This document shows, one piece after another, positions 1 through 60,660 of a DNA stretch of 64,000 nucleotides. Made by a program: the position numbers and the translations under genes. This DNA comes from Candidatus Krumholzibacteriia bacterium (GTDB lineage: Bacteria; Krumholzibacteriota; Krumholzibacteriia; LZORAL124-64-63): positions 4,847 through 68,846 of the forward strand of contig CALOFL010000004.1 of the NCBI GenBank assembly GCA_942492615.1, given 5' to 3'. Positions within the stretch are counted from its first letter, which is position 1, and each line of letters opens with the position of its first letter. Below the pieces are notes generated by a model. The model ran no database searches, was not told the origin of the DNA, and worked only from the letters and a program-made list of their open reading frames with translations.

Positions 1-567
1 TAGCAGGAGATGGAACTTGCTACGTTACCCAGGCTTTTTCGTGGAAAATAGCGAAGTACGATACCGAGGGTCGTTCGCTATTCCAAGAGGAGGTTTATGA
101 TCTTGGAGACAATTGGAATAAGCGTATGCAGTTGCGCGCGGTGTCCAGTTCCTCAGACCAACTGTTCCTAGTTTCTGTGGGGCCATCAGGGTCAGGTGGG
201 TCGGTTGAAGATAAGGCGATATCAGGTACTCTCCAATTGGTTCAGGGTGATCTCGTAAGAGTCCTGATGCGGACCGGTGTGCGGATTTCGATCCGGCCAC
301 AATTGATTTTGAATTTAGAAACATTCGAACTCTGGTCCGCGGTTGGGACATTAATTGGTCTGGTGAATTTGTGTGTGTGGCCCCCGATCGTGATTACTCC
401 TTTTAATAGGCAAGCCGGGAAGTACGGAAATGGAAACTGTCAGCTAGAAGGAATGGGGGGCTTTAAATCCTACGGGCGTCAGAGGCGAGTATTTCGACAA
501 TGAGAAACCCCAGCCTGCAGATCCCCAAGCCATTGTTTCCGTCCGTTGGCTAGGTGAGGACCGCCTG

Positions 568-900
568 ATGGTCCAATTTGAGGATCAATATGGCCGAAAA
601 GCGGCAAACTCAGCAGGGACTTTCGAGATTTTCCTAAGAGATGGAACTAGTTTGGGCGGATTTGAGATCCAGTGCCCGTACGACCCGAATCACGATAAGG
701 TTTTCATAAGGGAATCAACGATCGTGGTTATTCAAGGTGGAGAGGTGATCGCAAGGGCTTTTGTTAGGCAGCTATCCGATAATGATGTCAAGAATGACGA
801 TGAGTTTTCCACCCCTCCTCCCGAAGAAATACGGGTACGGTGCTACAACTTTAATTTTTTGGGTATGCAGCATTCGTTATCCAAGAGCAGTTTCAGATAA
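568..900 (+). CDS. hypothetical protein in low-GC region (no recognisable domain)
   Basis: 110-aa ORF in the low-GC left edge; no motif recognised; weak call. Confidence 0.2.
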   Translation: MVQFEDQYGRKAANSAGTFEIFLRDGTSLGGFEIQCPYDPNHDKVFIRESTIVVIQGGEVIARAFVRQLSDNDVKNDDEFSTPPPEEIRVRCYNFNFLGMQHSLSKSSFR

Positions 901-1012
901 CTGGTGTGATTTTGTGGTGGTTATTAAGGAATTTCTTGAATCCCTCCGTCTAAAAGGCATTGAAGCCCGGCAGTAGGCCAGTTGGATTGTTTGTTTAGAA
1001 GGACGAAGTCAA

Positions 1013-1285
1013 ATGAAGAAGTATGGAATGATCGTTCTTGCTGTTGTAACACTAATATTTACAGTTGCCCCACCCTCCGTTGCTCCGGCTGCTCCAGCTC
1101 CAGGTAGTTGTTTGGCAGCAATTACTTCACATTACAATGCCCAGCGGGATTGGAATGACTGCATGGACTATTGGGCGGGAAATGAATGGGTTCACGCTCA
1201 TGACATGTGCAGTACCTTGGAAACTGCCATGGATGCTGCACTTACTGCAATGATTTCGGCTTGTGACTTGGCGTTCACCCAGTAG
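1013..1285 (+). CDS. small secreted four-cysteine protein, paralog 1 (90 aa)
   Basis: RBS GAAGGA upstream of ATG; N-terminal signal peptide (MKKYGMIVLAVVTLIFTVAPPSVAPAAPAP); mature ~60 aa with 4 Cys at spacings 16/14/17; paralogous to ORF 1910..2221; followed by a strong intrinsic terminator. Confidence 0.55.
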   Translation: MKKYGMIVLAVVTLIFTVAPPSVAPAAPAPGSCLAAITSHYNAQRDWNDCMDYWAGNEWVHAHDMCSTLETAMDAALTAMISACDLAFTQ

Positions 1286-1294
1286 GGATTTTTG

Positions 1295-1327
1295 GGCCGC
1301 CGGATCCTACCGGCGGCCGTCGTTTTC
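1295..1327 (+). terminator. rho-independent terminator (GGCCGCCGG-ATCCTA-CCGGCGGCC + T-run)
   Basis: perfect 9-bp GC stem, 6-nt loop, followed by GTCGTTTT; directly after stop of 1013..1285. Confidence 0.5.
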
Positions 1328-1351
1328 CCATCCAACTATTCCTGACAATCC

Positions 1352-1570
1352 CTAATCGAATGCCGCAGTCACAATCTCCCGCCGCATCTTCGCGATGTTC
1401 TCGATCGGGATCTTCTTCGGACATACCGCCTCACACTCGCCATGGTTCGAGCAGTTGCTAAACCCGTCGTCGCCGTTCCGGGCGACCATCCGCAGGGCCC
1501 GCCGCGTCCGCTCGGGCCCGCCCTGAGGGAGGTAAACGAACTGGCCGACCTTCGCGCTCAGGAACAGCGA
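1352..1570 (-). pseudogene. diverged remnant of succinate dehydrogenase Fe-S subunit (sdhB) 3' end, ~72 codons
   Basis: C-terminal part of ORF 1352..1798 (…[72 protein letters not shown]) aligns at ~70% identity (52/72 by eye) to the C-terminus of intact SdhB at 4674..5432; the remnant is high-GC whereas its flanks are low-GC; the upstream part of the ORF has no Sdh similarity. Confidence 0.55.
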
Positions 1571-1850
1571 ACCCGATGGGTTTGGGTAAGTGAGAAAAGA
1601 TGGGGAGATGGTTACCAGCTCCAAATTCAGGCAACTGCACGATAATAATGGCAAAGAATACGCGAATTTTCTGCACCTCCAAGCTATGAAGTTAGAATTC
1701 GCTGCCGCAATTTGGGCGGCATTGGAAGTTTCGAACTGGAACGGGTAGTGGGTTTGAGTGATAGGATGATTGTTTATGAACCCATCTATTAACTTCAATC
1801 AATTTCGTAAATATTTGGAAAATTCCGACAACACAGATGTTGGCTATATT

Positions 1851-1878
1851 CGTTTAGCCGTGTTCGTTTAGCCGTGTC
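1851..1878. repeat. 14-bp tandem direct repeat (CGTTTAGCCGTGTT / CGTTTAGCCGTGTC)
   Basis: two adjacent near-identical 14-mers ~30 bp upstream of the start of the paralog-2 gene; possible regulator binding site or slippage duplication. Confidence 0.5.
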
Positions 1879-1909
1879 CATTGGGCACTAATCGCGTGGA
1901 GGATATGCT

Positions 1910-2221
1910 GTGAAAAAGCTAGGAATTGTCATTTGCACTGTTGCGCTTGTGGTTGTAGCAGTAGTTTCGCCGTCCGAAGCGCCTGCTGCTCCAGGAGGAG
2001 ACTTAGGTATTAACGGATGTGTAATTGCTGTCTCACAGTATTATGCTGCGTATAGTACATGGAGTAGTTGCATGGCCCAATGGGTTGGTAACGTTCCAGG
2101 GGGGCTTACGGGCCTAACGGCCGAAGATATGTGTTTTGATTTTAGTGAAGCCGCAGATGCAGCTCAAAATTATGCGAGCGGGGTCTGCGGTTGGTATGTT
2201 GATTTCGATCAAATGAACTAG
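1910..2221 (+). CDS. small secreted four-cysteine protein, paralog 2 (103 aa)
   Basis: GTG start 5 nt after GGAGGA; signal peptide MKKLGIVICTVALVVVAVVSPSEAPAAP; 4 Cys with spacings 16/19/17; shared motifs with paralog 1 (W..CM..W.GN, DMC, DAA); followed by an intrinsic terminator. Confidence 0.55.
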   Translation: MKKLGIVICTVALVVVAVVSPSEAPAAPGGDLGINGCVIAVSQYYAAYSTWSSCMAQWVGNVPGGLTGLTAEDMCFDFSEAADAAQNYASGVCGWYVDFDQMN

Positions 2222-2238
2222 TTTTTGGATATACGATA

Positions 2239-2275
2239 CGGCCGCCGGATCCCTCCGGCGGCCGTCCTCATTTCT
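2239..2275 (+). terminator. rho-independent terminator (CGGCCGCCGGA-TCCC-TCCGGCGGCCG + T-rich tail)
   Basis: 11-bp GC stem, 4-nt loop, followed by TCCTCATTTCT; the same stem core as the terminator after paralog 1. Confidence 0.5.
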
Positions 2276-2284
2276 AATCAACTA

Positions 2285-2360
2285 TTGCGAACTGGCACCT
2301 ACTTGAACGCCGCCCGCACGAAATCCCGCCGCTTGCGCGCTAAGTCCTCGACCAAGCTCT
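2285..2360 (-). pseudogene. second, shorter remnant of sdhB 3' end (~20 codons)
   Basis: minus-strand translation …ESLVEDLARKRRDFVRAAFK matches the SdhB C-terminus …[21 protein letters not shown]; DNA core TTGAACGCCGCCCGCACGAAATCCCGCCGCTTGCGCGC vs TTGAACGCCGCCCTGACGAACTCCCGCCGCATGCGCGC in intact sdhB. Confidence 0.35.
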
Positions 2361-2417
2361 CCAGGGACACACCGCCCCGCAACCGCCGCGGTCCGCGTCG
2401 ACATCGATGACTCCAGT

Positions 2418-4589
2418 TCACCGCACCGCCCGACTGACCTCGCGCCCCTCCGGATCCCATCGCACTTCCACACCCCGGGGCCGGCCACCCGACATCTCGC
2501 GGTACAGGCTCGGTTCGCCCCCGGGATGCCATTCCGTCCAGATGCCATCGGACACGGGCTGGCCGCGACTGTCGAGGCGAACCTGCACGATCGTGCTGAT
2601 GGCTCCGGAGGGGTGTTTTTCCACGGTGAATTTGGGTGTTTCAAAAGACGCCGCCGCACCACCCAGCTGGCCGCCGACCCGCGCCAGGAGCTCCTTGGTT
2701 TCCGGATGCCCCGGATCGATGGCGCGGGCTTCGAGCAGGTGGGAATAGGCGGCCGGGCCGTGCCCGCGTGACGCCAGGATCCCGCCCAGGATCCGGTGCG
2801 GTGCGTCGCGCTGTTCTCCCTGCCAGTAGACCGCCGCGAACAGCAGGTGGGCGCAGGCGAGTTCCACCTCCGGCGGTTGCCGGTCCAGGGCCCGCAGGCC
2901 GATCCGCCAGTGCGTGTCGGGCATGCCGGGATTGGCATTCAGGGCCAACCGGAAGTAGCGCTTCTCCTGCTCCAGATCACCGGTGGTCGCATACCAGGTG
3001 GCCAGGATGTTGGCCGCGGTCTTGACCGTCAGCGGATCCTCGTGGGGAAACTCCAGGGCCTGCCGGGCGGGACGAACGGCGTCCTCGGTCTTGCCGGACC
3101 ACGCCAGGACGGCCGCCAGGTTGGCCAGGGACCGCGCGCGCTTGGCGGGATCCAGCCGCTGCTCGATATTCTCGCCGGCCGTCCGCAATTGGTCCGGGGT
3201 CAGGCGGGCTGCGGGCAGCCCCGCGGTCGAAAGGACCGTCTGGGCCAGCTCCAGGGCGAGCAGACCATTGGCGCGGATCGTCGGGTGGACGTGATCGAGA
3301 AAAAATTCCTCGCCGGCGATCGCCGAGCCGAGTTCCTCCCGCGCCTTGTCGGCGATGAGCCGCTCGAAATCCACCACCGGCAGGTTCCGGTCCTGGGCGA
3401 CCGTCTCGATGCCGTTCATCATGACCGGTTGGATCCGCAGCGGACAGACATCCTCTTCGAGGGCCCGGTAGAAAGCCGTCCTGGCTTCCTCCTGGCGGCC
3501 CAGTAGCAGCAGGACCCGACCCCGGCGGTAATGGTGGTCCGCGTTGCGCGGATCCAGCGCCAGGGCGCGGTCCAGGTGCGCCAGCGCCGGCTCCAACTGT
3601 CCGGCTGCCAGGGCATCGGCGGCGGATGCGGCAGCGGCCGCGGACCGCGTCAGATCCTCCGCGGACAAGCCGTCGGTCGGCTGGCTCTTGAAGGGTGAAC
3701 AATCCTTGATGTTGACGGCCGGCTTCACGAGGACCATGGCTGCATCACTGCCGGCGGCCAGCCGGGCCATCCGGTCCAGGCTGATCACGAAATGTTCGCG
3801 GATCTGTGCGGCCAGCTTGTCGTCCCGCTGGTACGCTTCGGGCCCGAAATGCTCCAGCAGGGTATCGGCCTCCTCGGCGAGTTCGGCCTTGTCCGCCGGC
3901 GAACCGGGGGAGGTGATTCCCAGACCGTCGAGCAGGGAGTTCATCAGGGCCCAGGTCCGGGTGCGGGCCAGGAGGCCGGATACGGCCCTGACGAAGGCCG
4001 GTGTCGATTTCAGCGTGCGATAGGTGCGCTCTTCGAGAAACTCGTTCTGTCCGGAATAGACGATGAACAGATCGGGCTCGTAGCGGACGAGCTCTTCCAT
4101 CAGGTGGGCCACCCGGTAGCTCGCGTAGCTGACGGCGCCGACGTTGATGACCTCCCAGTCGGTCCCGGGGGCGGCCAGGGGCAGCAGTTCCCTGAGCCAG
4201 CCGGAGAACGAGCTGTTGTCGTCGAACGGCCGCCCGTAGGTGGTGGAACCCCCGAGGCAGAATATCCGATAGGTATTCGGTCCCTTGCGTGCGGGGAAAC
4301 GCTGGGGATTGAACAGCCGCTTGTTGGGGGCGGTCTCCAGGAACTTCGCGCCGGACGGTGCGGTGGTTTCGACAAAGAGGGGGACATTGCCGGCGAACCC
4401 CACGAAGGGATCGTCCTCGACGAGTACGGGCTCGACGCCTGCGGCCAGAAGGACAAGTTCGAGGAGGCCGAAGAACATCCCGACCATCAGGGCGCTCAGC
4501 AGGATCTTCTTCCACACGGGATGGTCGGGGGCGGGTGCATTCCCGTCCGCGGGCGCGCTGGTGTCAAAAAGAAGGCTCATTCGAAACAC
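2418..4589 (-). CDS. membrane-anchored protein with SGNH/GDSL-like hydrolase region and C-terminal TPR-like repeats (723 aa)
   Basis: N-terminal TM helix (LLSALMVGMFFGLLELVLLAAGV); region reminiscent of SGNH-fold (IVYSGQNEF…); several TPR-like helical repeats (ALALDPRNADHHYRRGRVLLLLGRQEEA…); host-like GC. Confidence 0.5.
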   Translation of the reverse strand: MFRMSLLFDTSAPADGNAPAPDHPVWKKILLSALMVGMFFGLLELVLLAAGVEPVLVEDDPFVGFAGNVPLFVETTAPSGAKFLETAPNKRLFNPQRFPARKGPNTYRIFCLGGSTTYGRPFDDNSSFSGWLRELLPLAAPGTDWEVINVGAVSYASYRVAHLMEELVRYEPDLFIVYSGQNEFLEERTYRTLKSTPAFVRAVSGLLARTRTWALMNSLLDGLGITSPGSPADKAELAEEADTLLEHFGPEAYQRDDKLAAQIREHFVISLDRMARLAAGSDAAMVLVKPAVNIKDCSPFKSQPTDGLSAEDLTRSAAAAASAADALAAGQLEPALAHLDRALALDPRNADHHYRRGRVLLLLGRQEEARTAFYRALEEDVCPLRIQPVMMNGIETVAQDRNLPVVDFERLIADKAREELGSAIAGEEFFLDHVHPTIRANGLLALELAQTVLSTAGLPAARLTPDQLRTAGENIEQRLDPAKRARSLANLAAVLAWSGKTEDAVRPARQALEFPHEDPLTVKTAANILATWYATTGDLEQEKRYFRLALNANPGMPDTHWRIGLRALDRQPPEVELACAHLLFAAVYWQGEQRDAPHRILGGILASRGHGPAAYSHLLEARAIDPGHPETKELLARVGGQLGGAAASFETPKFTVEKHPSGAISTIVQVRLDSRGQPVSDGIWTEWHPGGEPSLYREMSGGRPRGVEVRWDPEGREVSRAVR

Positions 4590-4611
4590 CTGTCCCAGTG
4601 CCGGTGTCCAA

Positions 4612-4652
4612 GGAAAAGGCGGCAGACTGGAAGGCCAATCCGCCGCTTTTCC
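4612..4652 (-). terminator. candidate intrinsic terminator downstream of sdhB
   Basis: imperfect GC hairpin (GGAAAAGCGGCGG…CTGCCGCCTTTTCC on minus strand) followed by a T-rich run, between the sdhB stop and the start of the 723-aa gene. Confidence 0.35.
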
Positions 4653-4673
4653 GTGGCCGTTGATAGGGTCATG

Positions 4674-5432
4674 CTACCCCTTGAACGCCGCCCTGACGAA
4701 CTCCCGCCGCATGCGCGCGATGTTCTCGATGGAGATCTCCTTGGGGCAGACCGCCTCGCATTCGCCGTGGTTCGAGCAGTCGCCGAAACCCTCGTCGTCC
4801 ATCTGCCCCACCATCAGCAGGGCCCGCCGCGTGCGCTCGGGCTCGCCCTGGGGCAGCCAGCTGAACTGGCTGATCTTGGCGCTGACAAACAGCGAGGCCG
4901 AAGCGTTGGGGCAGGCGGCCACGCAGGCGCCGCAGCCGATGCAGGCGGCCGCGTCCATGGCCTTGTCGGCGGCGTGCTTGGGGATCAGCTGATCGTTGCC
5001 GTCGGGCGCCGAACCCACGTTCATGGAGACGAAGCCGCCCTTGTTCTGGATCCGGTCGAAGGCCGAACGGTCGACCACCAGGTCCTGCAGGACGGGGAAG
5101 GGGCCGGCGCGGAACGGCTCGACGGTGATGGTGTCGCCGTCGTTGAAACTGCGCATGCGCACCTCGCAGGTGGTGCAGGCGGCATGCGTGCCGTGGGCGA
5201 CGCCGTTGATGACCAGGCCGCAGGTGCCGCAGATGCCCTCGCGGCAGTCGTTGTCGAACTCGACCGCCTTTTCGCCCTTCTTGACGAGGTCCTCGTTCAG
5301 GACATCGAGCATCTCGAGGAAGGACATCAGGGGCAGCACGTTCTCGACCGTGTAGTCGACGAAACGTCCCTTGTCCTGGCCGCGGTCCTGCCGCCATATC
5401 TTCAGATGAATCGTCATTGTCTTGTCGCTCAT
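4674..5432 (-). CDS. sdhB: succinate dehydrogenase / fumarate reductase iron-sulfur subunit
   Basis: 2Fe-2S and 4Fe-4S Cys clusters ([10 protein letters not shown]; [12 protein letters not shown]; [12 protein letters not shown]); operon position after sdhA. Confidence 0.9.
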
Positions 5433-5447
5433 GGGACCGTCCTTCCT

Positions 5448-7307
<1,860 letters not shown>

Positions 7308-7376: not shown

Positions 7377-8079
7377 CTAGTGACCTCCCGGCATGGCGTT
7401 CGGATCGCCGAAGAGGAACAGGTAGACGGGCAGGACGATGAAGCCGATCGCCAGCAGCACGGCGAACACCAGGGCGACGCGGACCAGCACCGGCAGGTAC
7501 CTGTCGTTGGCCAGGCCCAGGGACTGGAAGGCGCTCCAGGAGCCGTGCCGCAGGTGCAGGCCCAGCAGGATCATCGCCACCACGGTGAAGATGGTGAAGG
7601 CCGGCCCCTTGAAGACGGTCGCGACGGTCTTGTAGAGGTTCTTCACGCCGTGCTGGTCGACATCGTGGTTGCCGAACTTGAACAGGTAGATGTGGCCGAT
7701 GACGAATACCAGGATGATCGCGCCGGAGTAGATCATCGTACGCGAGGCCAATGTCTTGCGGCTCTTGCCGCCGGCGTTGGCGTTGTACTTGTAGCCCTGC
7801 TGGCGGGCTTTGCGCTTGTCGGTCCAGGCCACGGTGATGGCGGAGATCATGTGGAAAAGGAAGATGATCGAGCAGGCCGACCTCGAAGGCGTAGATGAGC
7901 CAGCCGTGGGCGGCGTTTTCGAGGAAGTGGGCGTACTCGTTGAAGGCGCCGGGGCCGATGAAGATGGTCAGATTACCGAGGAGATGGACGATGACGAATC
8001 CGATGAGAGCGATGCCAGTCAGCCCGGTGATCACCTTCTTTCCGATCGACGACCAGGCGGCCGAACCGATAGAACTCAT
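7377..8079 (-). CDS. sdhC: succinate dehydrogenase cytochrome b subunit, apparently frameshifted
   Basis: membrane N-terminus (MSSIGSAAWSSIGKKVITGLTGIALIGFVIVHLLGNL…, start 8079) in one frame; hydrophobic C-terminal 157 aa (7850..7377) in another; the frame switch lies near 7855-7880 with no stop-free single frame. Confidence 0.6.
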
Positions 8080-8373
8080 GAATTCGCACTCCTGGATTCG
8101 GGTCCGCAGAAGCCTGGGTTGACAGGGCCGATTAGAACATAAGTCGGAGGCCCGGACAGCACAATTTTTGATTTAACAGGTATGGGGGAAAATCATTGGT
8201 GGGTTCGTTTTGCGCCACGGTCAGGGCGCGGGGGGTTGATGCCCGCGGCGATTTGTTCTATAATGATCGGGAAGGCAGTTGGCCCCGTGCGACGCCTTCG
8301 CCCCCCTGAACGATCGCTTGCGTTTCCAGGCGAATATGCAGCCGTTTACTTCTGGTCGTGTCAGGAGAATGCC

Positions 8374-9874: not shown

Positions 9875-12800
9875 ATGGGACTCCTCGCTTTGGCCGTCAT
9901 GGCCCACGGACCGGGCGGATTCGTGCCGGAATGCACGCAAGGGCCGGACAATCACTGCCGGACCCTGGTAAGCAAGAAACAGACCTGGCTGAGGAACCGC
10001 TAAGTGGAGCGGGGAGCCTTCCGTCTGTGGCGACAGGACCTCTGTTGACCCGGCCTTGGCAGCGCCGCGCCGGCGGAGCCAGCGGCCCAAGCGGGCCAGG
10101 CCCCAGCCCCAGCGCGTGAACATCCAGTACAGAGCCGGCAGCGCACTGAGGATCAGCACGGTGCTGCTGCCCAGACCGCCGATGGAACTGAGCGCCAGGT
10201 TCTCCCAGATGTCCTTGCCGGCGGTGGCGTCCTTCTTGTAGAGCAGCGGCAGCAGACCGGCGATCGTCGTGCCGCTGGTCAGCAGGATCGAACGCATCTG
10301 GATGCGGGTGCCGTCGATGATCGCCCGGCTGAGAACCTTCTGGCGTATCGCGACCGGCAGGCGCCACAGGTCGAACCCGCCCAGGCGGCGCTTGACGGGG
10401 ATCTGGCCGTCCTGGTCGCCCACGGGGAAGTCGCCCTCCTCGACAATTTCCCGCACCTGGAGCCGGAACCGGTTGATCAGCAGGATGGCGTTGTTGACCA
10501 CGATGCCGAACATCAGGATCAGGCCGATCTTGGCCGACGAGTCGAACTCGCTGCCGGTGGCCCAGAAGATGCCGCCGACCCCGGACAGCGCCATGGGGAT
10601 GGACAGCAGCACGAGCAGGGGCAGGAAAAAGCTTTCGAACATGGCCGCCAGCGCCATGAAGATGAACGCCAGGGTCAGCCACAACGTCTGCTTGAGCTCC
10701 TCTTCCTCCTCTTCGGTGATCTGCTGGCCGCTCATGTCCTCGGCCGTGTAGCCGTACGGCAGCTGGATGCCGGCCATGACGTCCTCGATGTACTGTCGAC
10801 GCATGCGGTCGGTGCCGATGTACTCCCAGTTGATCATCTGGCTGTAGCGCTGATCGTGGCGGTTGATGGAGCTGATCTCCGGCCGGCTCTCGATGCTGAT
10901 CAGCCGCCCGAGCTGCACCTTCTGCCCGCGGGCCGTGGTCATGGTCCGGCCGAGCACCTGGTCGTATTCGATGGACTCGGAGTCGTCGAAGGTCAGCATC
11001 AGCCGCTGGTCTTCGCCTTCGACCACCATGTGCCAGGGGTTTTCGACCCCCAGCAGGCGCCGGATGTGGCCCATGACCTCCATCATGCTCAGGCGGTGCG
11101 ACGCCAGGGCATCGCGGTCCAGGATGATGACGGTCTCATCGGTGGCGTTGCGGCTGAAGCGGTCGCCGCTGGTCAGCCGGGGGTTGCGCACCCGGCGGTT
11201 CCTTTCCAGCCGTTCCAGCGCCCCGTCGGTGATCGCCTTGAGTTCCTTGCTGTTGTAGCCGGTGATGCGGATGGTGGAGTTGCTCATGCCGCCGCCGCGG
11301 CCGCCCTTCATGTAGGGGTCGCCGAAGCCGTTGATCCAGATGAACATGCCGCCGAGCTCCTCGGCCAGCACGATGAACTTGTTGCGGAACATCTCCGGGT
11401 ACGCCGTCTGGAGCAGCTCGTCGTCGAATTCGAGGTTGATCCAGGCGCGATTCTGGTAGGCGCCGCTGCGCATGTGGGCGCCTTCGGGCAGGGGCAGCAC
11501 CTCGGTCTCGAACAGCTTGATGGTCTCGCTCGAGAGCTTGACGTCGGTGCCGACGGGGCGCTCGCAGTAGACGACGATCTGTTCCCTGGACTGCGGCCGC
11601 CAGAAACCGCCCGTGCGGACCTTGTCCTTGAAGACGAAGAAGGTGCCGACGAACAGGCCGACGGTGATCAGAACCGGCAGGTACCAGAAACGCAGGTGCC
11701 CGCGGGTCAGCTGCTGCACGTAGCTGACGAAGATGCCCACGGCCAGCAGCAGGCCGCCGAGGACGCCGATCCAGGGCAGGATCTCCTGGGCGGTGAAGCG
11801 TCCTTTCCAGACCCAGGCCCCGATGAAGGCGATGATCGCCAGCAGCACCACGCCCAGCCCCCAGCGCCAGACCATGGCGAATCCCTGCAGGCCGAACTCG
11901 TCGTCGGCGGCGCGGGTGGTCCGCATCTCCTTTTCGGCCGGACCCTTGAGGGCGACGGGGATCCAGGCGAAGGCGACGAAGATCGAAGCCAGCATGGCGA
12001 TACCGACGCTCACGGCCAGGGGCACGTAGAACAGGCTCAGCCGGTCGGTCATGAAGATGAACGACAGGAACGCCACGACCGTGGTCAGGGTGGTGGCCAT
12101 GATCGGGAAAGCGACCTCGCGGGTGCCCCTGATCAGGGCGCGGCGCGAGTCGCCGCCGTGATTGCCGGACAGCCGGCGGTGGATCGCGTCGAGGACCAGG
12201 ATGCTGTTGTCCAGCAGCATGCCGAAGCAGACGGTCAGCCCGCTGATGGTGATGAAGTTGACCGACACCCCGAAGAAGTAGAACAGCGACAGGCAGATGA
12301 CGATGGCCAGCAGGATGGAGAAGATCACGATGCCCGTCAGCCGGACCTGCTTCAGGGCGATCGCCAGCATGATGAACAGCAGCCCCAGGATCACCAGGGA
12401 ACGGATCACCAGTTCCTCCAGCTTGTCTTCTAGTTCTTCGCCCTCGTCCTGGTCGACCTCGAACGTGACGGCGAAGGGGGCTTCGGCCTGGATCCGGGGC
12501 AGCTCCTCGCGCAGGCGGCGGCTGACGACGATGGAATTCTGCCCGCTGCGTTTGGTGATGTTCAGGGTGATCACGTTCTGGCCGTTGATGCGGCTGAAGT
12601 AGGAGATGTCCTCGAAGTCCTCCTGGATGACGGCGACGTGGCCCAGGGTGATCGGCTGCCCGCCGAGATTGCTGAGCACCGTCTCCTCGAGCATGCGCAG
12701 GGAGACGGAGTCCTGCACGCTGACGGTCAGCTCGCGTCCGCTGCGGCGCACGGCCCCGGCCGGGATGATGTCGTCCAGGGCGTTGATCCGGTTGGCGATC

Positions 12801-13405
12801 CCGTCGGCGGTCAGGCCGTAGCGCTCGATCAGTTCGAGGTCGAGCAGGACCTTGACCAGGGGGCGGGCACCGCCGCGCAGCTCGGCGTCCGCCACGCCGG
12901 GAATGGCCAGAAAGCGCGGCAGCAGCCAGGTCTCGGCCCGGTCGCGCAGGGCGTTCATCGACAGCGGGGAGATCAGGCTGACGGCGAAAAAGTCCTCCGC
13001 GCTGAGCTCTTCGGGAACGTAGGGCCGGATGAACGGCTGGCCCGCCTGGCTGGGCAGGGTGCGCCGGACCGAGCCCAGGCGCTCGGACAGTTCCAGCCTG
13101 GCGAACTCCATGTCGGTGCCGCGCTTGTATTTCACCGTCACGCTGCTCTGTCCGTGGCGCGACTGGGAATCAAGATCCTCGACGCCGTGGCAGCCGGCGA
13201 CCGCTTCCTCGATCGGCAGGGTGATCGAACGCTGGATCGCGCTCGGACTGGCGCCGTTCCAGCTGGTGACGATCGACAGCTCGGGCAGGTCGGTTTCGGG
13301 CATGGCCTCGATGTTCAAGCGCGGCAGGGCGTAGATACCCGTCACGATCAGCGCGGCGAATAGCATCCAGGTGGCGACGGGATGGTCGACGGCAAATTTG
13401 ATCAC
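9092..13405 (-). CDS. RND efflux transporter (HAE family) reading through in frame into a C-terminal lipoprotein-like module
   Basis: GTG start with GGAGG RBS at 13405; RND hallmarks (MIKFAVDHPVATWMLFAALIVTGIYALPRL…, 12 TM organisation); the ORF is 1437 aa because no stop separates it from the downstream module. Confidence 0.8.
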   Translation of the reverse strand: MIKFAVDHPVATWMLFAALIVTGIYALPRLNIEAMPETDLPELSIVTSWNGASPSAIQRSITLPIEEAVAGCHGVEDLDSQSRHGQSSVTVKYKRGTDMEFARLELSERLGSVRRTLPSQAGQPFIRPYVPEELSAEDFFAVSLISPLSMNALRDRAETWLLPRFLAIPGVADAELRGGARPLVKVLLDLELIERYGLTADGIANRINALDDIIPAGAVRRSGRELTVSVQDSVSLRMLEETVLSNLGGQPITLGHVAVIQEDFEDISYFSRINGQNVITLNITKRSGQNSIVVSRRLREELPRIQAEAPFAVTFEVDQDEGEELEDKLEELVIRSLVILGLLFIMLAIALKQVRLTGIVIFSILLAIVICLSLFYFFGVSVNFITISGLTVCFGMLLDNSILVLDAIHRRLSGNHGGDSRRALIRGTREVAFPIMATTLTTVVAFLSFIFMTDRLSLFYVPLAVSVGIAMLASIFVAFAWIPVALKGPAEKEMRTTRAADDEFGLQGFAMVWRWGLGVVLLAIIAFIGAWVWKGRFTAQEILPWIGVLGGLLLAVGIFVSYVQQLTRGHLRFWYLPVLITVGLFVGTFFVFKDKVRTGGFWRPQSREQIVVYCERPVGTDVKLSSETIKLFETEVLPLPEGAHMRSGAYQNRAWINLEFDDELLQTAYPEMFRNKFIVLAEELGGMFIWINGFGDPYMKGGRGGGMSNSTIRITGYNSKELKAITDGALERLERNRRVRNPRLTSGDRFSRNATDETVIILDRDALASHRLSMMEVMGHIRRLLGVENPWHMVVEGEDQRLMLTFDDSESIEYDQVLGRTMTTARGQKVQLGRLISIESRPEISSINRHDQRYSQMINWEYIGTDRMRRQYIEDVMAGIQLPYGYTAEDMSGQQITEEEEEELKQTLWLTLAFIFMALAAMFESFFLPLLVLLSIPMALSGVGGIFWATGSEFDSSAKIGLILMFGIVVNNAILLINRFRLQVREIVEEGDFPVGDQDGQIPVKRRLGGFDLWRLPVAIRQKVLSRAIIDGTRIQMRSILLTSGTTIAGLLPLLYKKDATAGKDIWENLALSSIGGLGSSTVLILSALPALYWMFTRWGWGLARLGRWLRRRGAAKAGSTEVLSPQTEGSPLHLAVPQPGLFLAYQGPAVIVRPLRAFRHESARSVGHDGQSEESHTMRNASKFVLMSLLLTSLFALVGCGSDDPASPTTTNSVDSATAEEFAVQALDMINSMAADIPYVSDGDFTQGTFAKAGEQPEWDPQQMAWVYDVTLDLSEGDPPTTTGEIRASVWIQFRNAEGPLTSSVGATEMEYRAGSGMTMNMAEDGVVANIEFDMATTMLVAYRQDGGYDVDGTGDANVSAYQSNGSQSERAAFHMAWGMDLMIQPEGCPSGTAFVDLAPYRMDATYDGQGNAAWTFTGPNYAAEGTELVGCGQPL

Positions 13406-13418
13406 GAAGGGCGCCTCC

Positions 13419-16400
13419 TCAATAGGCCTTGTCGGTCTTCCGGTGGAGCATCTCGTAGACCACCGGGGTCAGGAACAGGGTAAGAAAAGTCGCGATGCTC
13501 AGCCCGCCGATGATGGCGATGGCCAGCGGCCGCTGCATCTGTTCGCCGGTGCCCAGTCCCAGGCCCATCGGCACCATGGCCAGCACGGTGGTGACCGTGG
13601 TCATCACGATCGGTCGGAAACGCAGCGCGCTGGCTTCCATGATGGCCTCGCGTCCGCTCATGCCGTCGGACCGCAGGCGCCGGATCGTGGCCACCTTGAC
13701 GATGGCGTCGTTCACGGAGATACCCAGCAAGGCGATCATACCGATCAGGGAGATGATGTTGATGCTCTGCCCGGTGATGAACAGGGTGGCCACCGCGCCC
13801 ATGATGCCGACCGGCAGCACGGCCGAGATGATCAACGGATCGAGAAAACTCTCGAACTGGGCGGCCAGGATCATGTAGACCAGCAGGCCCGACAGCAGCA
13901 GCGCCCAGCCGAGATCGCGGAAGCTGCTGTTGATCTCCTCCTGTTCGCCGCCGGTGATGAAGGCCAGGCCTTCGGGCGTCTCGAGGTTGGCTATCAGGTC
14001 GCGCACGTCGTCCCAGACGTCGGCGACGCCGCGGCCGTTGATGTCGCCGCTGATGGAGATCTGGCGGCGCTGGTCGCGGCGCACGATCTCGCGTACGGGC
14101 GTGCCGGAGGTCTGGATGATGAACGAGCCCAGCGGCACCGTCTTGTCCTCGCCGAGGGCGACGGGGGAGGCCAGGACCTTGGCCAGGTCGTAACGCTGCG
14201 TCCGCGGCAGGCGCACGGCGATGTCGATCCGCTGCTCGATTTCGTTGTAGGTCGTGGCCACCGTTCCCTGGATGCGGTTGCGCAGCTCGCGGGCCAGGGC
14301 GTCGGGCTCCAGCCCGTAACGCAGCGCCTTCTCCCGGTCGATGGTGATTTCCACCGTCGGGTTGCCCATCACCCGGTCCATGCCCACGTCCGCCAGGCCC
14401 GGGATCGCCCGCAGCTTCGGCAGGATCGAGTCGGCCATGGCGAAGGCCTCGCTGGGCTTCTCGGCCACGATGCCGAGGGTGAAGGCGGCTTCGCCGCTGG
14501 CGAGGATTTCGCGCAGACCCACGCCTTCCTCGCTGAAGGTGAAGATGGCCCCCTGCCTGTCGGCCAATCGTTCCTGGAGCCGCGCCTTCACCTTGTCCAT
14601 GTCGCTGCGGCCGTGGCGGCTGGGCTTGAGCATCACCCGCGTGCGGGCCGTGTTGGCGGCGCTGTATTCCTTGAGGCTGGCCAGGGTCTTCTCGGTGACG
14701 CCGACCTGGCTGTAGACCGTGGCCACCTCGGGCATCGTCACCAGGTAGCCGGCCAGATCGCCGGCCGCTTCGTAGGTGGATTCCAGGGGCGTGCCGGCCG
14801 GCAGTTCCATCGCCAGCGTGAAATCGCCGCGCGAGCGGTCGGGCATGAACGACAACCGCATCTCCTTGCCCAGAAGGACCGTCGCAACCAGGGCGATCAG
14901 CACGGCGGTCAGGAAGTAGACCTTGTGGTCCATGACCCGGCCGAGCACACCGTGGTAGTGGTTCATGACGGCCTGGAAAGCGTTCTCGAACGGCCGGAAG
15001 ATCAAGCTGGGCCTGTCCTTGGGCGTCTTGAGGATGTGGGCCGACAGCATCGGCTGCAGGAGCAGGGCGGCGAAGATCGACACCATCAGACTGATGGTCA
15101 CGGTCAGGGCCTGGTCGCGGAAGAACTCGCCGGCGATACCCGGCACATAGATGACCGGGAAGAAGACCGCGACGGTCGTCAGGGTCGCCGCGATCACGGG
15201 TGAGGCCACCTCGGACGCCCCGTCGGCGCAGATCTCCGCGATGGGCTGGCCGCTGCCCTTCTTCATCTTCAGGTGGCGGTTGATGTTCTCCAGGACCACG
15301 ATCGAGTTGTCCACGAGCATACCGGCGGCCAGCGACAGGCCGCCCAGCGACATCAGGTTCAGCCCGACGTCGGCGAAGTAGAGAAAGGCGAACGTGGTCA
15401 TGATCGAGACGGGGATGGCCAGACCGACGACCACGGGGCTGCGCCAGTTCATCAGGAACAGGAACAGCACCAGGAAAGCCAGGCCGGCGCCGTACTTCAG
15501 GGAGTCCTCGAGGCCCTTGAAGCTCTCCTCGACGAAATCGGCGTCCTTGTAGATGAACGAGTAGTCGAAGTCGACATACTGTTCGCCGAGAATGCCGAGA
15601 ACCTTGTCGACCTCCGCCGTGGTCGCGATGGTGTTCTCGCCCACCTCCTTGTACAGGTGCAGGGAAACCACCTCTTCGTCGCCGTTCAGGGTAAAGCCCT
15701 CGGGCTCCTTGATGGTGTCGACGACCTGCGCGACGTCATTGATCGTGATGCCCGGCCCGGCGGCGGGGATCTCGGTCTTGCGGATCTCATCGAGGTTTTC
15801 GTATTCGCCGAGGATGCGCAGCGGCAGGTGGAGGGGGCCCTTGCGGATGCGTCCGCCGGGAAAACTGATGTTGGCGACCCGCAGGGCGGTGCTCAGGTCC
15901 TCCATGGTCAGGCCGTAGAGCCGCAGGCGGTTGAAGTCGGGCTGGACGAGGATTTCCCGTTCGGCCCCGCCGATGACTTCGGCCTGGCTGACGCCGTTGA
16001 TCTGCTCGAGCGCCGGCTTGACGACCTCACGGGCGAACTCCGTCATCCGCGCCATCGGATCGTCGCCGTGCAGCACCAGGATCGCGATGGGCCGCGCGCT
16101 CGGATCCCAGCGCAGGATCAGCGGCCGGTCGGCCTCCTCGGGGAAGTCGTCCCGGTAGGCGACCCGGTCGATGGCTTCGCGCAGGTGCAGGTTGGCGAAG
16201 TCCATCTCCGTGCCCCACTCGTACTGGACGGTGATGGTCGACACGCCTTCGCGGGTCTTGGAGATCACGCGCCGCACGCCCGCCAGGCCGGTGATGACCT
16301 CTTCGAGAGGCTGCGTCACCAGGCGGGTCAGGTCGTCGGCCGGGGTGTCGCTGTAGTTCGTGATGACCGTCAGGTTCGGGTAGTTGATCGAGGGCAGCAG

Positions 16401-16502
16401 GTCGACCGGGAGTCGTTGTCGGGCCTGGAACCCGATGAGGACCAGGCCGGCAAACAGCATCAGGATCGCGACGGGGCGTCGGACGGCATTCTGGATGATC
16501 AT
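13419..16502 (-). CDS. RND efflux transporter (HAE/AcrB-like), first of a tandem pair
   Basis: start MIIQNAVRRPVAILM at 16502 overlapping the MFP stop (ATGA); typical RND periplasmic and TM domains; 1027 aa. Confidence 0.85.
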   Translation of the reverse strand: MIIQNAVRRPVAILMLFAGLVLIGFQARQRLPVDLLPSINYPNLTVITNYSDTPADDLTRLVTQPLEEVITGLAGVRRVISKTREGVSTITVQYEWGTEMDFANLHLREAIDRVAYRDDFPEEADRPLILRWDPSARPIAILVLHGDDPMARMTEFAREVVKPALEQINGVSQAEVIGGAEREILVQPDFNRLRLYGLTMEDLSTALRVANISFPGGRIRKGPLHLPLRILGEYENLDEIRKTEIPAAGPGITINDVAQVVDTIKEPEGFTLNGDEEVVSLHLYKEVGENTIATTAEVDKVLGILGEQYVDFDYSFIYKDADFVEESFKGLEDSLKYGAGLAFLVLFLFLMNWRSPVVVGLAIPVSIMTTFAFLYFADVGLNLMSLGGLSLAAGMLVDNSIVVLENINRHLKMKKGSGQPIAEICADGASEVASPVIAATLTTVAVFFPVIYVPGIAGEFFRDQALTVTISLMVSIFAALLLQPMLSAHILKTPKDRPSLIFRPFENAFQAVMNHYHGVLGRVMDHKVYFLTAVLIALVATVLLGKEMRLSFMPDRSRGDFTLAMELPAGTPLESTYEAAGDLAGYLVTMPEVATVYSQVGVTEKTLASLKEYSAANTARTRVMLKPSRHGRSDMDKVKARLQERLADRQGAIFTFSEEGVGLREILASGEAAFTLGIVAEKPSEAFAMADSILPKLRAIPGLADVGMDRVMGNPTVEITIDREKALRYGLEPDALARELRNRIQGTVATTYNEIEQRIDIAVRLPRTQRYDLAKVLASPVALGEDKTVPLGSFIIQTSGTPVREIVRRDQRRQISISGDINGRGVADVWDDVRDLIANLETPEGLAFITGGEQEEINSSFRDLGWALLLSGLLVYMILAAQFESFLDPLIISAVLPVGIMGAVATLFITGQSINIISLIGMIALLGISVNDAIVKVATIRRLRSDGMSGREAIMEASALRFRPIVMTTVTTVLAMVPMGLGLGTGEQMQRPLAIAIIGGLSIATFLTLFLTPVVYEMLHRKTDKAY

Positions 16503-17827
16503 TGGGCCGCGACCTCGCCGAAGGTGGCGAAGTCCCACTTGTCACGCGGCGGGATGGTCTTGCGGACCTTGATCTTGGCCTCGTGCGCCAGGGTCAGGTG
16601 GTCGCTGACGACCACCTGGTCGCCGGCGGCCAGGGAGCCGCCGCTGTGGACCTTGAGGATCTCCACCCAGTCCTCGTTGGCCAGGCCGATGTCCACGTAG
16701 AGCCAGCGCGCCCGGTCGTCCTCCTTCTTGAACACCAGGGGGCGGTTGTCGCGGATCAGCAGGGCTTCCTTGGGCGCCAGCAGCTTGTCGGCAAACACGA
16801 TGCCGGCGATCTCGGCCCGCACGAACATGCCGGGGCGGAAGCGGCCTTCGGGGTTGCTGAAGCGGATCAGCAGCTCGCAGGTGCGCGAGGCCTCGTCCAG
16901 CGAGGCGCTGATGACGTCGACGGCGGCCTCGAGCGTGTCGCCGGTCGCCGGCACCGCCAGGAGCACCGGACGCCCGGGGGCCAGATGACCGAGATCGGCC
17001 TCGAGCACATTGACGACCGCCTCGAGGTTGTCGTTGTTGACGATGGTGCAGAACGAGTTGCCGACGGTGACGATTTCACCGGTGACCATGGCCAGACTCT
17101 GCACGATACCGGCGAAGGGCGCGCGGATCTCGGTGTACTCCAGGTTGAGCTTGGCCCGCTCCTCGGCCATGCGGGCCTCGGCCAGGCCGGTGCGCTGCTG
17201 GAAGACCGCCTCGCGGAAGGCGCCGTCCTGCAAGGCGTCCATCTCCAGCTCGAGCAGGCGGCCCTGGAACTCGTCGCGTGAGAGCGACCCCTTCTTCAGC
17301 ATCTTTTCCAGTTCGCCGCGCTGCGTCGTGAAATCCTTGATCGCCTCGTGGTTCACACTGAAGGTGTCGGTTTCGGCGGCCATCTGGCTGAGCGCTTGCA
17401 GATGGCGGTAGCGGCTCTCCTCGAGCGCGATCTCGTATTCGCGGGGGTCGATGCGCGCCAGCAGCTGATTCCGGCGGACACGGTCGCCGTCACGCACCAG
17501 GACCTCCAGGAGCTCACCGCCGGACTTGGTCTTGATCACCACCGTCTGCGGTGTGCGGATGGCGCCGTCGGCATAGACGGGCAGCACCAGGTTGCCCTGG
17601 CGAATGGCGCCCACGTTGACCCGGATGGACTTCTCCTTGGTCTTGGTTTCCGCGCTGGTGTCGGCCTCGGCGCTGACGCTGTCGCCGGCTGCGGTCGAAT
17701 CCGCCGCGGCACCGTCACCGTCGCCGCCGAAGCAGCCGCCGAGCGATGCTGTCAGCAGGCAGGTCAGCAGCAGGAGAAAGGGAATCGACAGACGTCCACG
17801 AGCGAGCGCAACCAGCCGGTAATGCAT
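16499..17827 (-). CDS. RND efflux membrane fusion protein (periplasmic adaptor), lipoprotein
   Basis: signal peptide plus lipobox (LTASLGGCF); HlyD/MFP-like coiled-coil and beta-barrel regions; directly upstream of the two RND genes. Confidence 0.8.
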   Translation of the reverse strand: MHYRLVALARGRLSIPFLLLLTCLLTASLGGCFGGDGDGAAADSTAAGDSVSAEADTSAETKTKEKSIRVNVGAIRQGNLVLPVYADGAIRTPQTVVIKTKSGGELLEVLVRDGDRVRRNQLLARIDPREYEIALEESRYRHLQALSQMAAETDTFSVNHEAIKDFTTQRGELEKMLKKGSLSRDEFQGRLLELEMDALQDGAFREAVFQQRTGLAEARMAEERAKLNLEYTEIRAPFAGIVQSLAMVTGEIVTVGNSFCTIVNNDNLEAVVNVLEADLGHLAPGRPVLLAVPATGDTLEAAVDVISASLDEASRTCELLIRFSNPEGRFRPGMFVRAEIAGIVFADKLLAPKEALLIRDNRPLVFKKEDDRARWLYVDIGLANEDWVEILKVHSGGSLAAGDQVVVSDHLTLAHEAKIKVRKTIPPRDKWDFATFGEVAAQ

Positions 17828-17994
17828 TTCGGACCTTCCGGGTCAGGGGTCGGATTGTGCCGGGACAATCCCGGATCAGTTAAAAAAAATATGCCCTTGC
17901 CAGTATAAAGCCTGCGGGCGCCAGCGTCACATGGATTGATGGGGGCCTCGACCACTACGAAAAAACGCCGTTGCGGTTGCAAATCTCCGGTGCC

Positions 17995-19248
17995 TCATTC
18001 GAGGCTCAGGCGGTAGCAGATGACCTCCAGGGGCCGGATCGGTGCCTCTTCCGTGTCGGCGTCCGGATCGTCGGCGCCCTGACCCCGGAAAGCGAACATG
18101 GCTGCGGCGTGTTCGCGCACCAGGACGGCGAGGCCGTCGCCGGGCAGGAACAGGGCGTCCTGGAGTCCCCGGCCTTCGCAGGCGATGGCGACCTGATGGG
18201 TGAAATTGCCCGCCGGGTCGAAGACGTCCCAGGTCGAATGGACACCGGCGGGCTGCTCGCGGACGCCCCGGCTGGGCAGGACCCAGATGCGGCCGTCGCC
18301 GTCGATCTGCACCTCCAGGATGTCTTTTTCGGTGGGCGCCATGTCCAGTCCGATGTTGCGGCGACTGCGGCGCCGCGACGGCATCAACATTTCCTGGGCG
18401 CGGGCCATCTCGGCGGCGGTCCTCTCCCAGGAGCGGTAGGGGCGGGTGATGACCCGCTCGACGCCCCCGTCCGGGGCGTGGACCTCGAGGCGGTAGGTGT
18501 TCCGCAGCGGGGCGATCACCACGCGCCCGTCGGGGCCGAGCGCCCAGCCGCCCCGATGGGGGAAGAATTCTTCCGCTTCGGAAATCTCGGCGCTCCTGAA
18601 CTCGCGGACGGTGGTCGCGCCGAGAAAAACCTCCCCGACCGAGCCGTCGTCGCCGTAGCTGGCGATGAAGTGGTCGGCGGTCCGGGAATTGTCGCCACGG
18701 GTCATCCGCATGCCACTGAGGACAAGACGGTTGCCGACCGCCGCGGCGCCGCGCAGGGCCAGGAAGCCGCCGTCGGTGGGATCGTCGCCACCGGGTCTGA
18801 TCTCACCGGCGGTCACGCCGTCGGGATCCAGCATGACGATGCGGCCGGGGAATCCCTGGACCAGTCCCAGGTTGCCGTTGGGCAGAAACAGAAAAGCGGA
18901 AGCGAAACGCACCTCGCCGGGGCCGTCGCCCCTCCTGCCCAGTGATTTCAGGTATGCACCGTCGGCGTCGAAGACCTGCACCTCGACGAGCTGGACGTCC
19001 AGCAGGTAGACGTTGCCCTGGTCGTCCACCTCGACCTGGTCGATCACGCCCAACAGGTTCTCCTCGTCATCTTCGCCGCCGATGCGCCACAGCTCCTCGA
19101 GGTGTGCCGTCAGCACGCCGGCGCTGGGCACCTCGCCGTTGGCGACGACCGGGACCTCGTCGCCGCAAGCGGTCGCCGCCACCAGGAGAAAGGCGGCCAG
19201 AAGAACCGCGACGCGGGGGACGCTGGGCAGCATGGCGGCAGCAGACAA
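17995..19248 (-). CDS. secreted/lipoprotein beta-propeller-like protein, paralog A
   Basis: signal peptide with Cys (LLVAATACGDE); motif LEELWRIGGEDDEENLLGVIDQVEVDDQGNVYLLD shared with paralog B. Confidence 0.5.
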   Translation of the reverse strand: MSAAAMLPSVPRVAVLLAAFLLVAATACGDEVPVVANGEVPSAGVLTAHLEELWRIGGEDDEENLLGVIDQVEVDDQGNVYLLDVQLVEVQVFDADGAYLKSLGRRGDGPGEVRFASAFLFLPNGNLGLVQGFPGRIVMLDPDGVTAGEIRPGGDDPTDGGFLALRGAAAVGNRLVLSGMRMTRGDNSRTADHFIASYGDDGSVGEVFLGATTVREFRSAEISEAEEFFPHRGGWALGPDGRVVIAPLRNTYRLEVHAPDGGVERVITRPYRSWERTAAEMARAQEMLMPSRRRSRRNIGLDMAPTEKDILEVQIDGDGRIWVLPSRGVREQPAGVHSTWDVFDPAGNFTHQVAIACEGRGLQDALFLPGDGLAVLVREHAAAMFAFRGQGADDPDADTEEAPIRPLEVICYRLSLE

Positions 19249-27901: not shown

Positions 27902-28363
27902 CTACTCCAGCTCCGTCAACTGCCGGAGGTTGGACTGCCCGTCCTCGTGCATGGTTTTGATCAGGTCCGCCAGCGTGAAGCTGGTCCAGAATTCCTTCAT
28001 CCGGGCGCTCAGCAGGGTCCAGATCGAGCGCGTCAGGCAGCCGTCGGATCTTTCGCAGACCTCGGGCTCGAGCACGCAGTCGACCAGGGTGGTGTGCGAA
28101 TCCAGCGCGGTGATGATCTCCCAGAGGTTGATGTCCTCCGGCGGGCGGGTCAGGGAGTAACCGCCGCGAACACCCTTGCGGCTGGAGATCAGGTCGGCCT
28201 TGCGTAGGGTGCCGACCACCTGCTCGAGGTATTTGCCACTGATTTCCTGGGTTTCGCTGATGGCGCTGATGGGCACCGGATCTCCGTTGTAGCCGTCGGC
28301 GATCTGGAGGATGGCCCTCAAGCCGTATCGTACCTTGGTGTTGACCTTCATGTCCGTTGGCAC
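27902..28363 (-). CDS. Rrf2-family transcriptional regulator (IscR/NsrR-like)
   Basis: N-terminal wHTH (TKVRYGLRAILQIADGYNGDPVPISAISETQEISGKYLEQVV) and three clustered Cys (CVLEPEVCERSDGC) typical of Fe-S-binding Rrf2 proteins. Confidence 0.8.
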   Translation of the reverse strand: MPTDMKVNTKVRYGLRAILQIADGYNGDPVPISAISETQEISGKYLEQVVGTLRKADLISSRKGVRGGYSLTRPPEDINLWEIITALDSHTTLVDCVLEPEVCERSDGCLTRSIWTLLSARMKEFWTSFTLADLIKTMHEDGQSNLRQLTELE

Positions 28364-28694
28364 CTCCGGGTGGTCGCAGCTGGGCGGGCTCTTCGGTATG
28401 CACTAGGATATTTCGTCGCCATCGGCGAACTACAGGCAGTGGAGGACCCCGTATTACGATCAGTTCTTATGTAACACCCGGGCGCGACCAACTGCGAGGT
28501 GCAATATCAATCAAACGAAAGGTCCTGGCGCTTACAGGTCTTTTAGCTAAATGTGTAAAAGGCAATGTATTGGATTGGCCCGCTTCCGAAAACCCCGGAG
28601 TTGTGGACATCCCGTGCGGGGGTCCTATCCTGTGCGAAGTATTTCCATTTTCTATCTGCTTGGGCTACACTATTTATTGGAACGGGGACCTGCC

Positions 28695-56980: not shown

Positions 56981-57084
56981 CTCGATATGTTAAAATAGGG
57001 GATCATTCTCCCTCAATAAAAAGCGGGCTTCTCGTAACACCACCCCTGAAAGCCGGGGAAGCCCAGGCCTGCTGGAGGACAACG

Positions 57085-60460: not shown

Positions 60461-60660
60461 ATCCCATCGTATTTCTGGAAAAACGGCTCCGATTGTGTTA
60501 CTATGGCCCCCGCAATTTGTGGCTGGGCTGAAATTTCCAAGTACTCCTGCAGTACCTACTTTACGCGCCTTGATGTGCTGTCAGCCCCGTTGGTATCTTC
60601 GTCAGGGCGTGCATTTTTTTGTCGAGTTCATCGTGGTGTATGACCATGGGGAGTTGAACC

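Follow-up and report, generated by a model that had tools for sequence, protein, structure and literature searches.

Stray copies of the 3' end of a gene have been described at several kinds of bacterial locus. At rhs, contact-dependent inhibition (CDI), and type VI secretion system (T6SS) effector loci, orphan 3' ends form arrays that have been ascribed to 'C-terminal displacement', with homology-facilitated illegitimate recombination as the proposed mechanism (Kirchberger et al. 2017, PMC5361080, which cites Jackson et al. 2009 and de Vries & Wackernagel 2002). In Escherichia coli K-12, prophage e14 (and also phage 21) occupies the 3' end of icd and leaves the pseudogene icdC (PMC13626634, citing Hill et al. 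1989). The case described here lies at the left end of a 64,000-nucleotide stretch of contig CALOFL010000004.1 from a Candidatus Krumholzibacteriia bacterium (the whole stretch is called the window below). There, an AT-rich islet downstream of the sdhCAB operon carries two stubs of the respiratory gene sdhB, frag1 and frag2, each belonging to one of two diverged repeat units, and these stubs may be the footprints of successive recombination events between related genomes.

The locus resembles the rhs, CDI, and T6SS arrays in that an intact gene is followed by co-oriented displaced 3' ends, each with its former downstream partner gene, the stubs vary in age and origin, the junctions are illegitimate, and a recombinase is not needed. 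Specifically, frag2 and frag1 are co-oriented downstream of sdhB, each is then followed by a homologous hairpin and a small gene, and a gene encoding a TPR protein stands between sdhB and the array. In contrast to the known arrays, however, sdhB is a housekeeping gene rather than a polymorphic toxin, the partners are convergent genes for small secreted proteins instead of co-directional immunity genes, and the gene that separates the intact sdhB from the array is ancestral, with no sign that the array has been selected. The likeness to e14 consists of a protein-coding metabolic gene whose 3' end is duplicated as a pseudogene beyond foreign DNA, but e14 abuts icd, encodes an integrase, and excises precisely, and icd and icdC share an attachment (att) core, none of which is seen at the sdhB islet; the resemblance is superficial only. 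As in genomic islets at synteny break points, AT-rich ORFan DNA begins exactly where synteny with relatives ends, whereas most described islets have no internal tandem units with pieces of neighbouring core genes, which this islet does have. The structure, which does not belong to the polymorphic-toxin systems, can be described as recombination scars combined with a genomic islet at a synteny break point, that is, as something of a known kind and not a new type of mobile element.

Two diverged repeat units in an AT-rich islet

At its left end, the window consists of AT-rich DNA of foreign composition. In 300-nucleotide windows across positions 1-2250, the GC content ranges from 0.43 to 0.59, and over positions 1-2280 it lies between 0.43 and 0.52 except in one block at about 1350-1590, as against 0.662 ± 0.039 (mean and standard deviation of 300-nucleotide windows) in the rest of the window, where the minimum across the other 61.6 kb is 0.503. 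By tetranucleotide profile, the islet's distance from the host exceeds that of host windows by 14 standard deviations. Given that the islet also differs in composition from pooled host intergenic DNA (GC 0.64), the anomaly is real, as the original prediction, made from the letters of the window and its open reading frames, had held from the low GC content alone. Other GC dips in the window (0.50-0.58) were seen only at 28300-28600, 56360-57080, and 60460-60660, all of them short, intergenic-sized, and far milder than the islet.

Within the islet are two diverged head-to-tail copies of one unit, composed of the 3' part of an open reading frame termed orf568, a small gene, a hairpin, and a convergent sdhB 3' end, with a repeat period of about 945 bp (spacings of 945-947 nucleotides). 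The two copies of one module proposed originally were thus confirmed through their paralogous small genes, near-identical hairpins, and sdhB 3' fragments. All the parts listed at that time are present, but the unit is larger than had been supposed and also takes in a pseudo-copy derived from the 3' part of orf568. Intact orf568 (568-900, + strand), a listed reading frame without a family match that encodes a 110-residue ORFan, is the left-hand element of unit 1; its residues ~54-99 match the decayed copy at 1590-1726 (+ strand), which is frameshifted and contains internal stops (tblastn E = 4.6e-4). The small genes, small1 (1013-1285, + strand) and small2 (1910-2221, + strand), encode paralogous proteins with 34% amino acid identity (E = 5e-14), and their nucleotide identity by codon position (0.53/0.62/0.32) is a coding pattern in which the third positions are saturated.

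Downstream of each small gene lies a hairpin, at 1295-1321 and 2240-2266, both identified by terminator calling and folding energy and both called as + strand rho-independent terminators 3' of the small genes. Hairpin 1 reads GGCCGCCGG-ATCCTA-CCGGCGGCC, followed by GTCGTTTT, and hairpin 2 has an identical stem, with only loop bases differing, so that the two agree at 25 of 27 positions. They are the sole two matches in 64 kb, where none would be expected, and are predicted to fold with energies of -28 and -32 kcal/mol. Hairpin 1 is followed by a moderate U tract (UUUU) and hairpin 2 by a weak one, and neither has a U tract on the minus strand.

Two junctions delimit this arrangement. At junction 1 (1586|1587), the boundary of the two units, sdhB codon ~175 is fused to an orf568-like codon ~54; the partners joined here are non-homologous, and this is an illegitimate or duplication-type junction and not an att site. 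At junction 2 (2396-2417), the right boundary of the islet at about 2396, frag2 abuts the ~20-nucleotide 3' flank of the TPR gene. The sdhB breakpoints differ between the stubs (codon ~175 in frag1, codon ~217 in frag2), and no string longer than 9 nucleotides is shared by sdhB and both stubs.

The stubs themselves, delimited by similarity to the resident sdhB, cover codons ~175-251 in frag1 (1355-1586, - strand, with the stop at 1352-1354) and codons ~217-251 in frag2 (2299-2395, - strand). Minus-strand pieces of the sdhB 3' end had been recognized correctly in the original prediction, and the extents given here correct those that it had assigned. Frag1 shares 78% nucleotide and 72% amino acid identity with sdhB residues 175-250, without gap, stop, or frameshift, and its differences from the resident gene are distributed over the three codon positions as 12/11/30 (p = 0.0015), with 0.71 synonymous substitutions per synonymous site (dS), 0.167 nonsynonymous substitutions per nonsynonymous site (dN), and a dN/dS of 0.24. 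Had frag1 been a pseudogene ever since leaving the resident sdhB, a flat profile would be expected, and the observed one contradicts this; the third-position excess instead indicates that part of the divergence accrued in a working gene of another lineage. The same excess upholds the earlier view that the stubs are not recent local duplicates. About 14 replacements in frag1 fall at positions that are invariant in functional orthologues, which indicates that frag1 has decayed too. Its GC content (0.64, and 0.83 at third codon positions) is host-like within the surrounding AT-rich DNA, so frag1 came from a high-GC sdhB of this clade and not from an AT-rich donor. Its best nucleotide match anywhere is still the resident sdhB, together with that of a metagenome contig of the same species, L081 (77.7%), followed by those of L161 and L012 at 76%, meaning that its source lineage is either unsampled or masked by decay.

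In contrast, frag2, which has about 78% nucleotide identity to sdhB over 98 nucleotides, a 1-nucleotide deletion, and lost cluster-ligand Cys residues, differs from the resident gene evenly by codon position (7/8/7, p = 0.96). Judging from this flat profile, frag2 is a product of pure neutral decay from a sequence very near the ancestor of the resident sdhB. When all three sequences are compared over the last 99 nucleotides, 17 and 15 changes are private to the stubs and 3 to the resident gene, which yields a star-shaped tree whose node lies close to the resident gene. Frag1 and frag2 are both non-functional stubs, and by their substitutions they have different histories. The E in IENIA and the R in FVRAAF were considered as markers of stub origin and dropped, being too widespread among relatives. 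An explanation of frag2 as templated filler DNA was likewise dropped, because the stub belongs, with the hairpin and the small gene, to a unit whose two copies are homologous.

The sdh operon and its surroundings in related genomes

The resident operon lies on the minus strand, with sdhC at about 7377-8079, sdhA at 5448-7307, and the intact sdhB (252 residues, identified as an open reading frame with a family match) as the last gene at 4674-5432, so the islet is downstream (3') of the operon, not upstream as first stated. The terminator of the intact sdhB (4619-4646, - strand, from terminator calling and folding energy) lies upstream of the TPR gene (2418-4580, - strand), which encodes a 720-residue GDSL/SGNH-TPR protein according to its Pfam matches, has a host-like GC content, and is not part of the islet. 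The SdhB protein is closest (82-85%) to those of metagenome-assembled genomes (MAGs) labelled Krumholzibacteriia, Gemmatimonadales, and unclassified bacteria.

Comparison with relatives places the TPR gene, and not the islet, next to sdhB. The adjacency of sdhB and the TPR gene is confirmed independently by L081, a contig from the Joint Genome Institute metagenome Ga0316201 that is 97.5% identical in nucleotides to window positions 11434-3835; its TPR gene is 98.8% identical, and the contig ends inside it. The sdhCAB-TPR block is also kept in L161 and L162, with 68% amino acid identity in the TPR protein and 86% in SdhB, and dS between the resident sdhB and that of L161 is 0.85. The presence of the adjacency in all three indicates that the position next to sdhB is ancestral for the TPR gene in this clade; none of the more distant TPR homologues adjoins sdh. 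A recent insertion of the TPR gene as the event that created frag2 was rejected, because the pairing with sdhB is shared with L161 and the corresponding dS of 0.85 exceeds the decay of frag2 (~0.2).

Upstream of sdhC, gene order is shared with all relatives. In the more distant ones this synteny breaks off directly behind sdhB, and in L161 it runs through the TPR gene and stops there. In L161, the stop codon of the TPR gene is followed after 18 nucleotides by a convergent gene for an 851-residue kinase/TPR protein (12179-14734 in L161), and neither an AT-rich islet nor an sdhB stub was found after the TPR gene. L161, having the TPR gene but no islet, thus displays an empty site located after the TPR gene and not in sdhB, around whose 3' end an empty-site comparison had been proposed.

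Another case was found in an unrelated genome. In L055 (KSB1 MAG contig JAJDAG010000097.1, 10754-11596), the DNA after sdhB holds, in this order, a vapBC-like antitoxin/PIN pair (10833-11478, GC 0.32-0.40), an sdhB stub, and a native-looking terminator. The stub spans ~105 nucleotides, is ~98% identical to the 3' end of its own sdhB, and carries a 12-nucleotide internal deletion; the stop codon of the inserted gene lies within ~20 nucleotides of it. To judge from this sequence, L055 is a recent, independent example of the same scar type, in the same gene and with the same stub orientation, although unlike the islet it represents a recent event, a single stub, and toxin-antitoxin cargo. It is the only other case among 163 sdhB loci in which the sdhB 3' end was compared with the downstream DNA, and this rarity indicates an occasional scar rather than a dedicated integration site.

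In the closest genome relative, L001, a lower-GC stretch (12300-18900) begins 1.5 kb downstream of sdhB and holds two near-identical tandem genes for 399-residue beta-helix-like secreted proteins, an open reading frame resembling ISL3-family transposases (15596-16843), and a gene for a 532-residue BNR/Ycf48-like repeat protein, from which it follows that the DNA downstream of sdhB is variable in this clade. In the metagenome contig L118, the same sdhB 3' end occurs twice in inverted orientation (945-1178 and 7853-8086) and encodes an identical protein; this is probably a palindromic assembly artefact. Within the window, sdhC is split at 7855-7868 (- strand) into an N-terminal part of 75 residues and a C-terminal part of ~160 residues in different frames, and it is a single intact reading frame of ~236 residues in L081 and L161. 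The split reflects either a 1-nucleotide mistake made in assembly or sequencing or a genuine frameshift in the gene for the cytochrome b subunit, and the probable indel relative to L081 means that the assembly of the window is not error-free.

Possible recombination scars and competing explanations

From the observed unit structure, the two junctions, the empty site in a relative, and the substitution patterns of the stubs, we infer that the stubs could be footprints of successive recombination between relatives with different DNA downstream of sdhB, each event relying on homology at one side and being illegitimate at the other. This is the most economical class of explanation, and we put its chances at about even. 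The ancestral arrangement would have been AT-rich orf568, a small gene, and a hairpin directly downstream of an sdhB. A first event would have joined sdhB codon ~175 to orf568 codon ~54, adding a second, already diverged unit, and in a later event the then-functional sdhB of unit 2 would have been cut at codon ~217 and joined to the 3' flank of the TPR gene. At least two successive events would thus be required, each with one illegitimate breakpoint within the 3' part of sdhB; homology, either in the highly conserved sdh genes or in the flank on the opposite side, probably anchored the other end. Recombination would have taken place between related genomes or strains with different DNA after sdhB (the islet in one, the TPR gene in the other), and in each event the terminator and small gene downstream would have been displaced along with the prior sdhB 3' end, which stayed behind as a stub. 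Such a history explains why frag1 diverged like coding sequence, why there is no recombinase, why the breakpoints differ, and why the stubs are co-oriented.

Several points weigh against it. No donor with the order small gene, hairpin, and sdhB was found, and the small proteins, orf568-like DNA, and P0121, the protein encoded at the window edge, have no relatives in any genome or metagenome collection searched. Frag2, which would be the younger stub in a simple serial model, has decayed at least as much as frag1. Moreover, homology-facilitated illegitimate recombination is rare in experiments (PMC5361080).

Repeats that stand head to tail at a constant spacing, with only one novel junction, could also have arisen locally, if the islet once abutted sdhB, a tandem duplication ran from orf568 codon ~54 to sdhB codon ~175, the copies diverged in place, and a later rearrangement put the array after the TPR gene. 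Such a duplication predicts a left copy with full orf568 and truncated sdhB and a right copy with truncated orf568, exactly as seen, and the star-like three-way tree, with the slowly evolving resident sdhB at its node, fits as well. Nevertheless, frag1 would have been a pseudogene from the start, contrary to its third-position excess (p = 0.0015) and its dN/dS of 0.24, and the third positions of the small genes are saturated (identity 0.32) while frag1, in unit 1 too, is still 78% identical to sdhB, which speaks against a local duplication whose copies then diverged in place for a long time. Given that the sdhB-TPR pairing predates the decay of frag2 (dS 0.85 vs ~0.2), an extra, unexplained rearrangement would also be needed, and this history is rather unlikely. 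Distinctly less probable is a second sdh operon, acquired or paralogous, that stood after the TPR gene with the islet behind it and was deleted down to frag2, frag1 stemming from an earlier event of the same sort. Deletion of a redundant copy requires no special mechanism, and the stubs are indeed high-GC, sdhB-like, and of the same clade; however, no remnants of sdhA or sdhC were traced, a landing 20 nucleotides after the neighbour gene of the resident operon would be a coincidence, and the model itself leaves the tandem junction at 1586|1587 unexplained.

The original prediction had likened the pattern to serial site-specific integration, in which elements insert one after another at the sdhB 3' end, bring replacement ends, and rely on a recombinase beyond coordinate 1, for which e14 with icd and icdC offers a precedent (PMC13626634). 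The islet's foreign composition, its continuation to the left, the co-orientation of the stubs with sdhB, the perfectly conserved hairpin stems, and the purifying-selection signature of frag1, as expected of an element-borne replacement end, all suit such an origin. In spite of this, we see only a slim chance for it. The islet does not abut the intact sdhB, from which it is separated by the ancestral TPR gene; the empty site in L161 is not at the supposed target; the breakpoints differ, and beyond 9 nucleotides the stubs and sdhB share no common string, let alone an identical att core; the junction between the units is illegitimate; the 'element' between the stubs amounts to 0.7 kb with a small gene and a truncated pseudogene; and no recurrent element occupies this site in the 163 sdhB loci. 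Nor is a recombinase visible: Pfam and PHROG searches found none in the visible 2.4 kb and the 115 further residues of P0121, and, in agreement with what had been reported before, no integrase was seen in the visible islet or the adjacent syntenic DNA, although one may lie further left, beyond coordinate 1. Slimmer still is the chance that the units are relics of small elements that form a so far undescribed family in Krumholzibacteriota-like bacteria; such elements would target the sdhB 3' end, carry a selected replacement end, and have their recombinase left of the window. If true, this would explain the purifying-selection signature of frag1 and the perfect conservation of the hairpin stem, which could then act as a recombination site and not only as a terminator. 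An assembly chimera, in which the AT-rich end comes from another organism, is highly improbable, even though the assembly is of the metagenome type, sdhC carries its probable indel error or real frameshift, and independent support from L081 reaches no further than window position 3835. At ~2396 and 1586|1587, the sequences that meet are unrelated and have no k-mer in common, as an assembler would need to join them; frag2 is not a stretch of some other organism's gene but a truncated pseudogene that has decayed; a mis-join does not yield two units with internal homology; and L055 has the same type of structure in an unrelated assembly.

Islet proteins and the meaning of the stubs

All islet proteins are ORFans, with no relative among ~15 billion predicted proteins. 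The islet extends past coordinate 1, as anticipated: positions 1-503 (+ strand), whose frame is open from the window edge, hold the 3' two-thirds of the gene for P0121, a 281-residue ORFan of which residues 116-281 are encoded here and the other 115 lie left of the window. As this gene starts about 345 nucleotides (and no fewer) left of coordinate 1, the islet measures at least ~2.7 kb and runs off the window. The sole match of P0121 among 5.8 billion proteins is the full-length 281-residue protein from the same NCBI contig; it belongs to no Pfam or PHROG family, and its AlphaFold2 (AF2) model is unusable (mean predicted local distance difference test score, pLDDT, 31). Residues 65-130 show weak tblastn similarity (33% over 69 residues, E ~3e-4) to a gene ~5.3 kb upstream of sdhB in L020, L120, and L038, and by eye resemble NHL or beta-propeller-type repeats. 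With respect to a phage or plasmid origin of the islet, blastn against phages and plasmids gave no match, and none was found in viral contigs. No tRNA genes were found in the window, and the Rfam search of positions 1-5000 returned only a sub-threshold hit to M23 sRNA at 3176-3234 (+ strand; 24 bits vs a gathering score of 41, E = 0.19), which lies antisense inside the TPR gene and is probably a chance match.

Small1 encodes a 90-residue secreted helical protein with four Cys and small2 its 103-residue paralogue, which has a GTG start with GGAGGA 7 nucleotides upstream; a purine-rich ribosome-binding motif precedes both. Each has a signal peptide of the form MKK-hydrophobic-APAAP and four aligned Cys conserved in both, and AF2 predicts the mature part of small1 as a helical hairpin with a pLDDT of ~90 even from a two-sequence alignment. 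On the strength of the signal peptide and Cys, the codon-position pattern, the ribosome-binding motif, and the AF2 confidence, small1 and small2 were accepted as genes, and they are probably real, expressed, secreted proteins whose transcripts end at the hairpins. A word-index search of 5.8 billion proteins found no relatives, nor did a full HMMER profile search against 1.84 billion cluster representatives; Pfam and PHROGs gave no match, and Foldseek against the PDB returned generic helical hairpins only (E > 1). Given that P0121 and P0001 from the same NCBI contig are present in the protein collection while small1 and small2 are absent, the small genes were apparently not called in the source annotation; the gene caller probably missed them, and the antisense reading frame at 1352-1798, which contains frag1, may have been called instead. 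Nothing ties the small proteins functionally to sdhB, and their function need not relate to it.

The importance of the result is modest. Where synteny breaks, the past replacement of a flank can be read from short, co-oriented stubs of a conserved core gene, here in a poorly known, uncultured phylum, and the substitution pattern of the stubs separates a once-foreign working allele, with its third-position excess, from a decayed native end, with its flat profile. The locus also calls for caution, in that a duplicated gene 3' end is not always an att site. Small1 and small2 are candidate lineage-specific secreted factors and the only component of the islet that might hold new biology.

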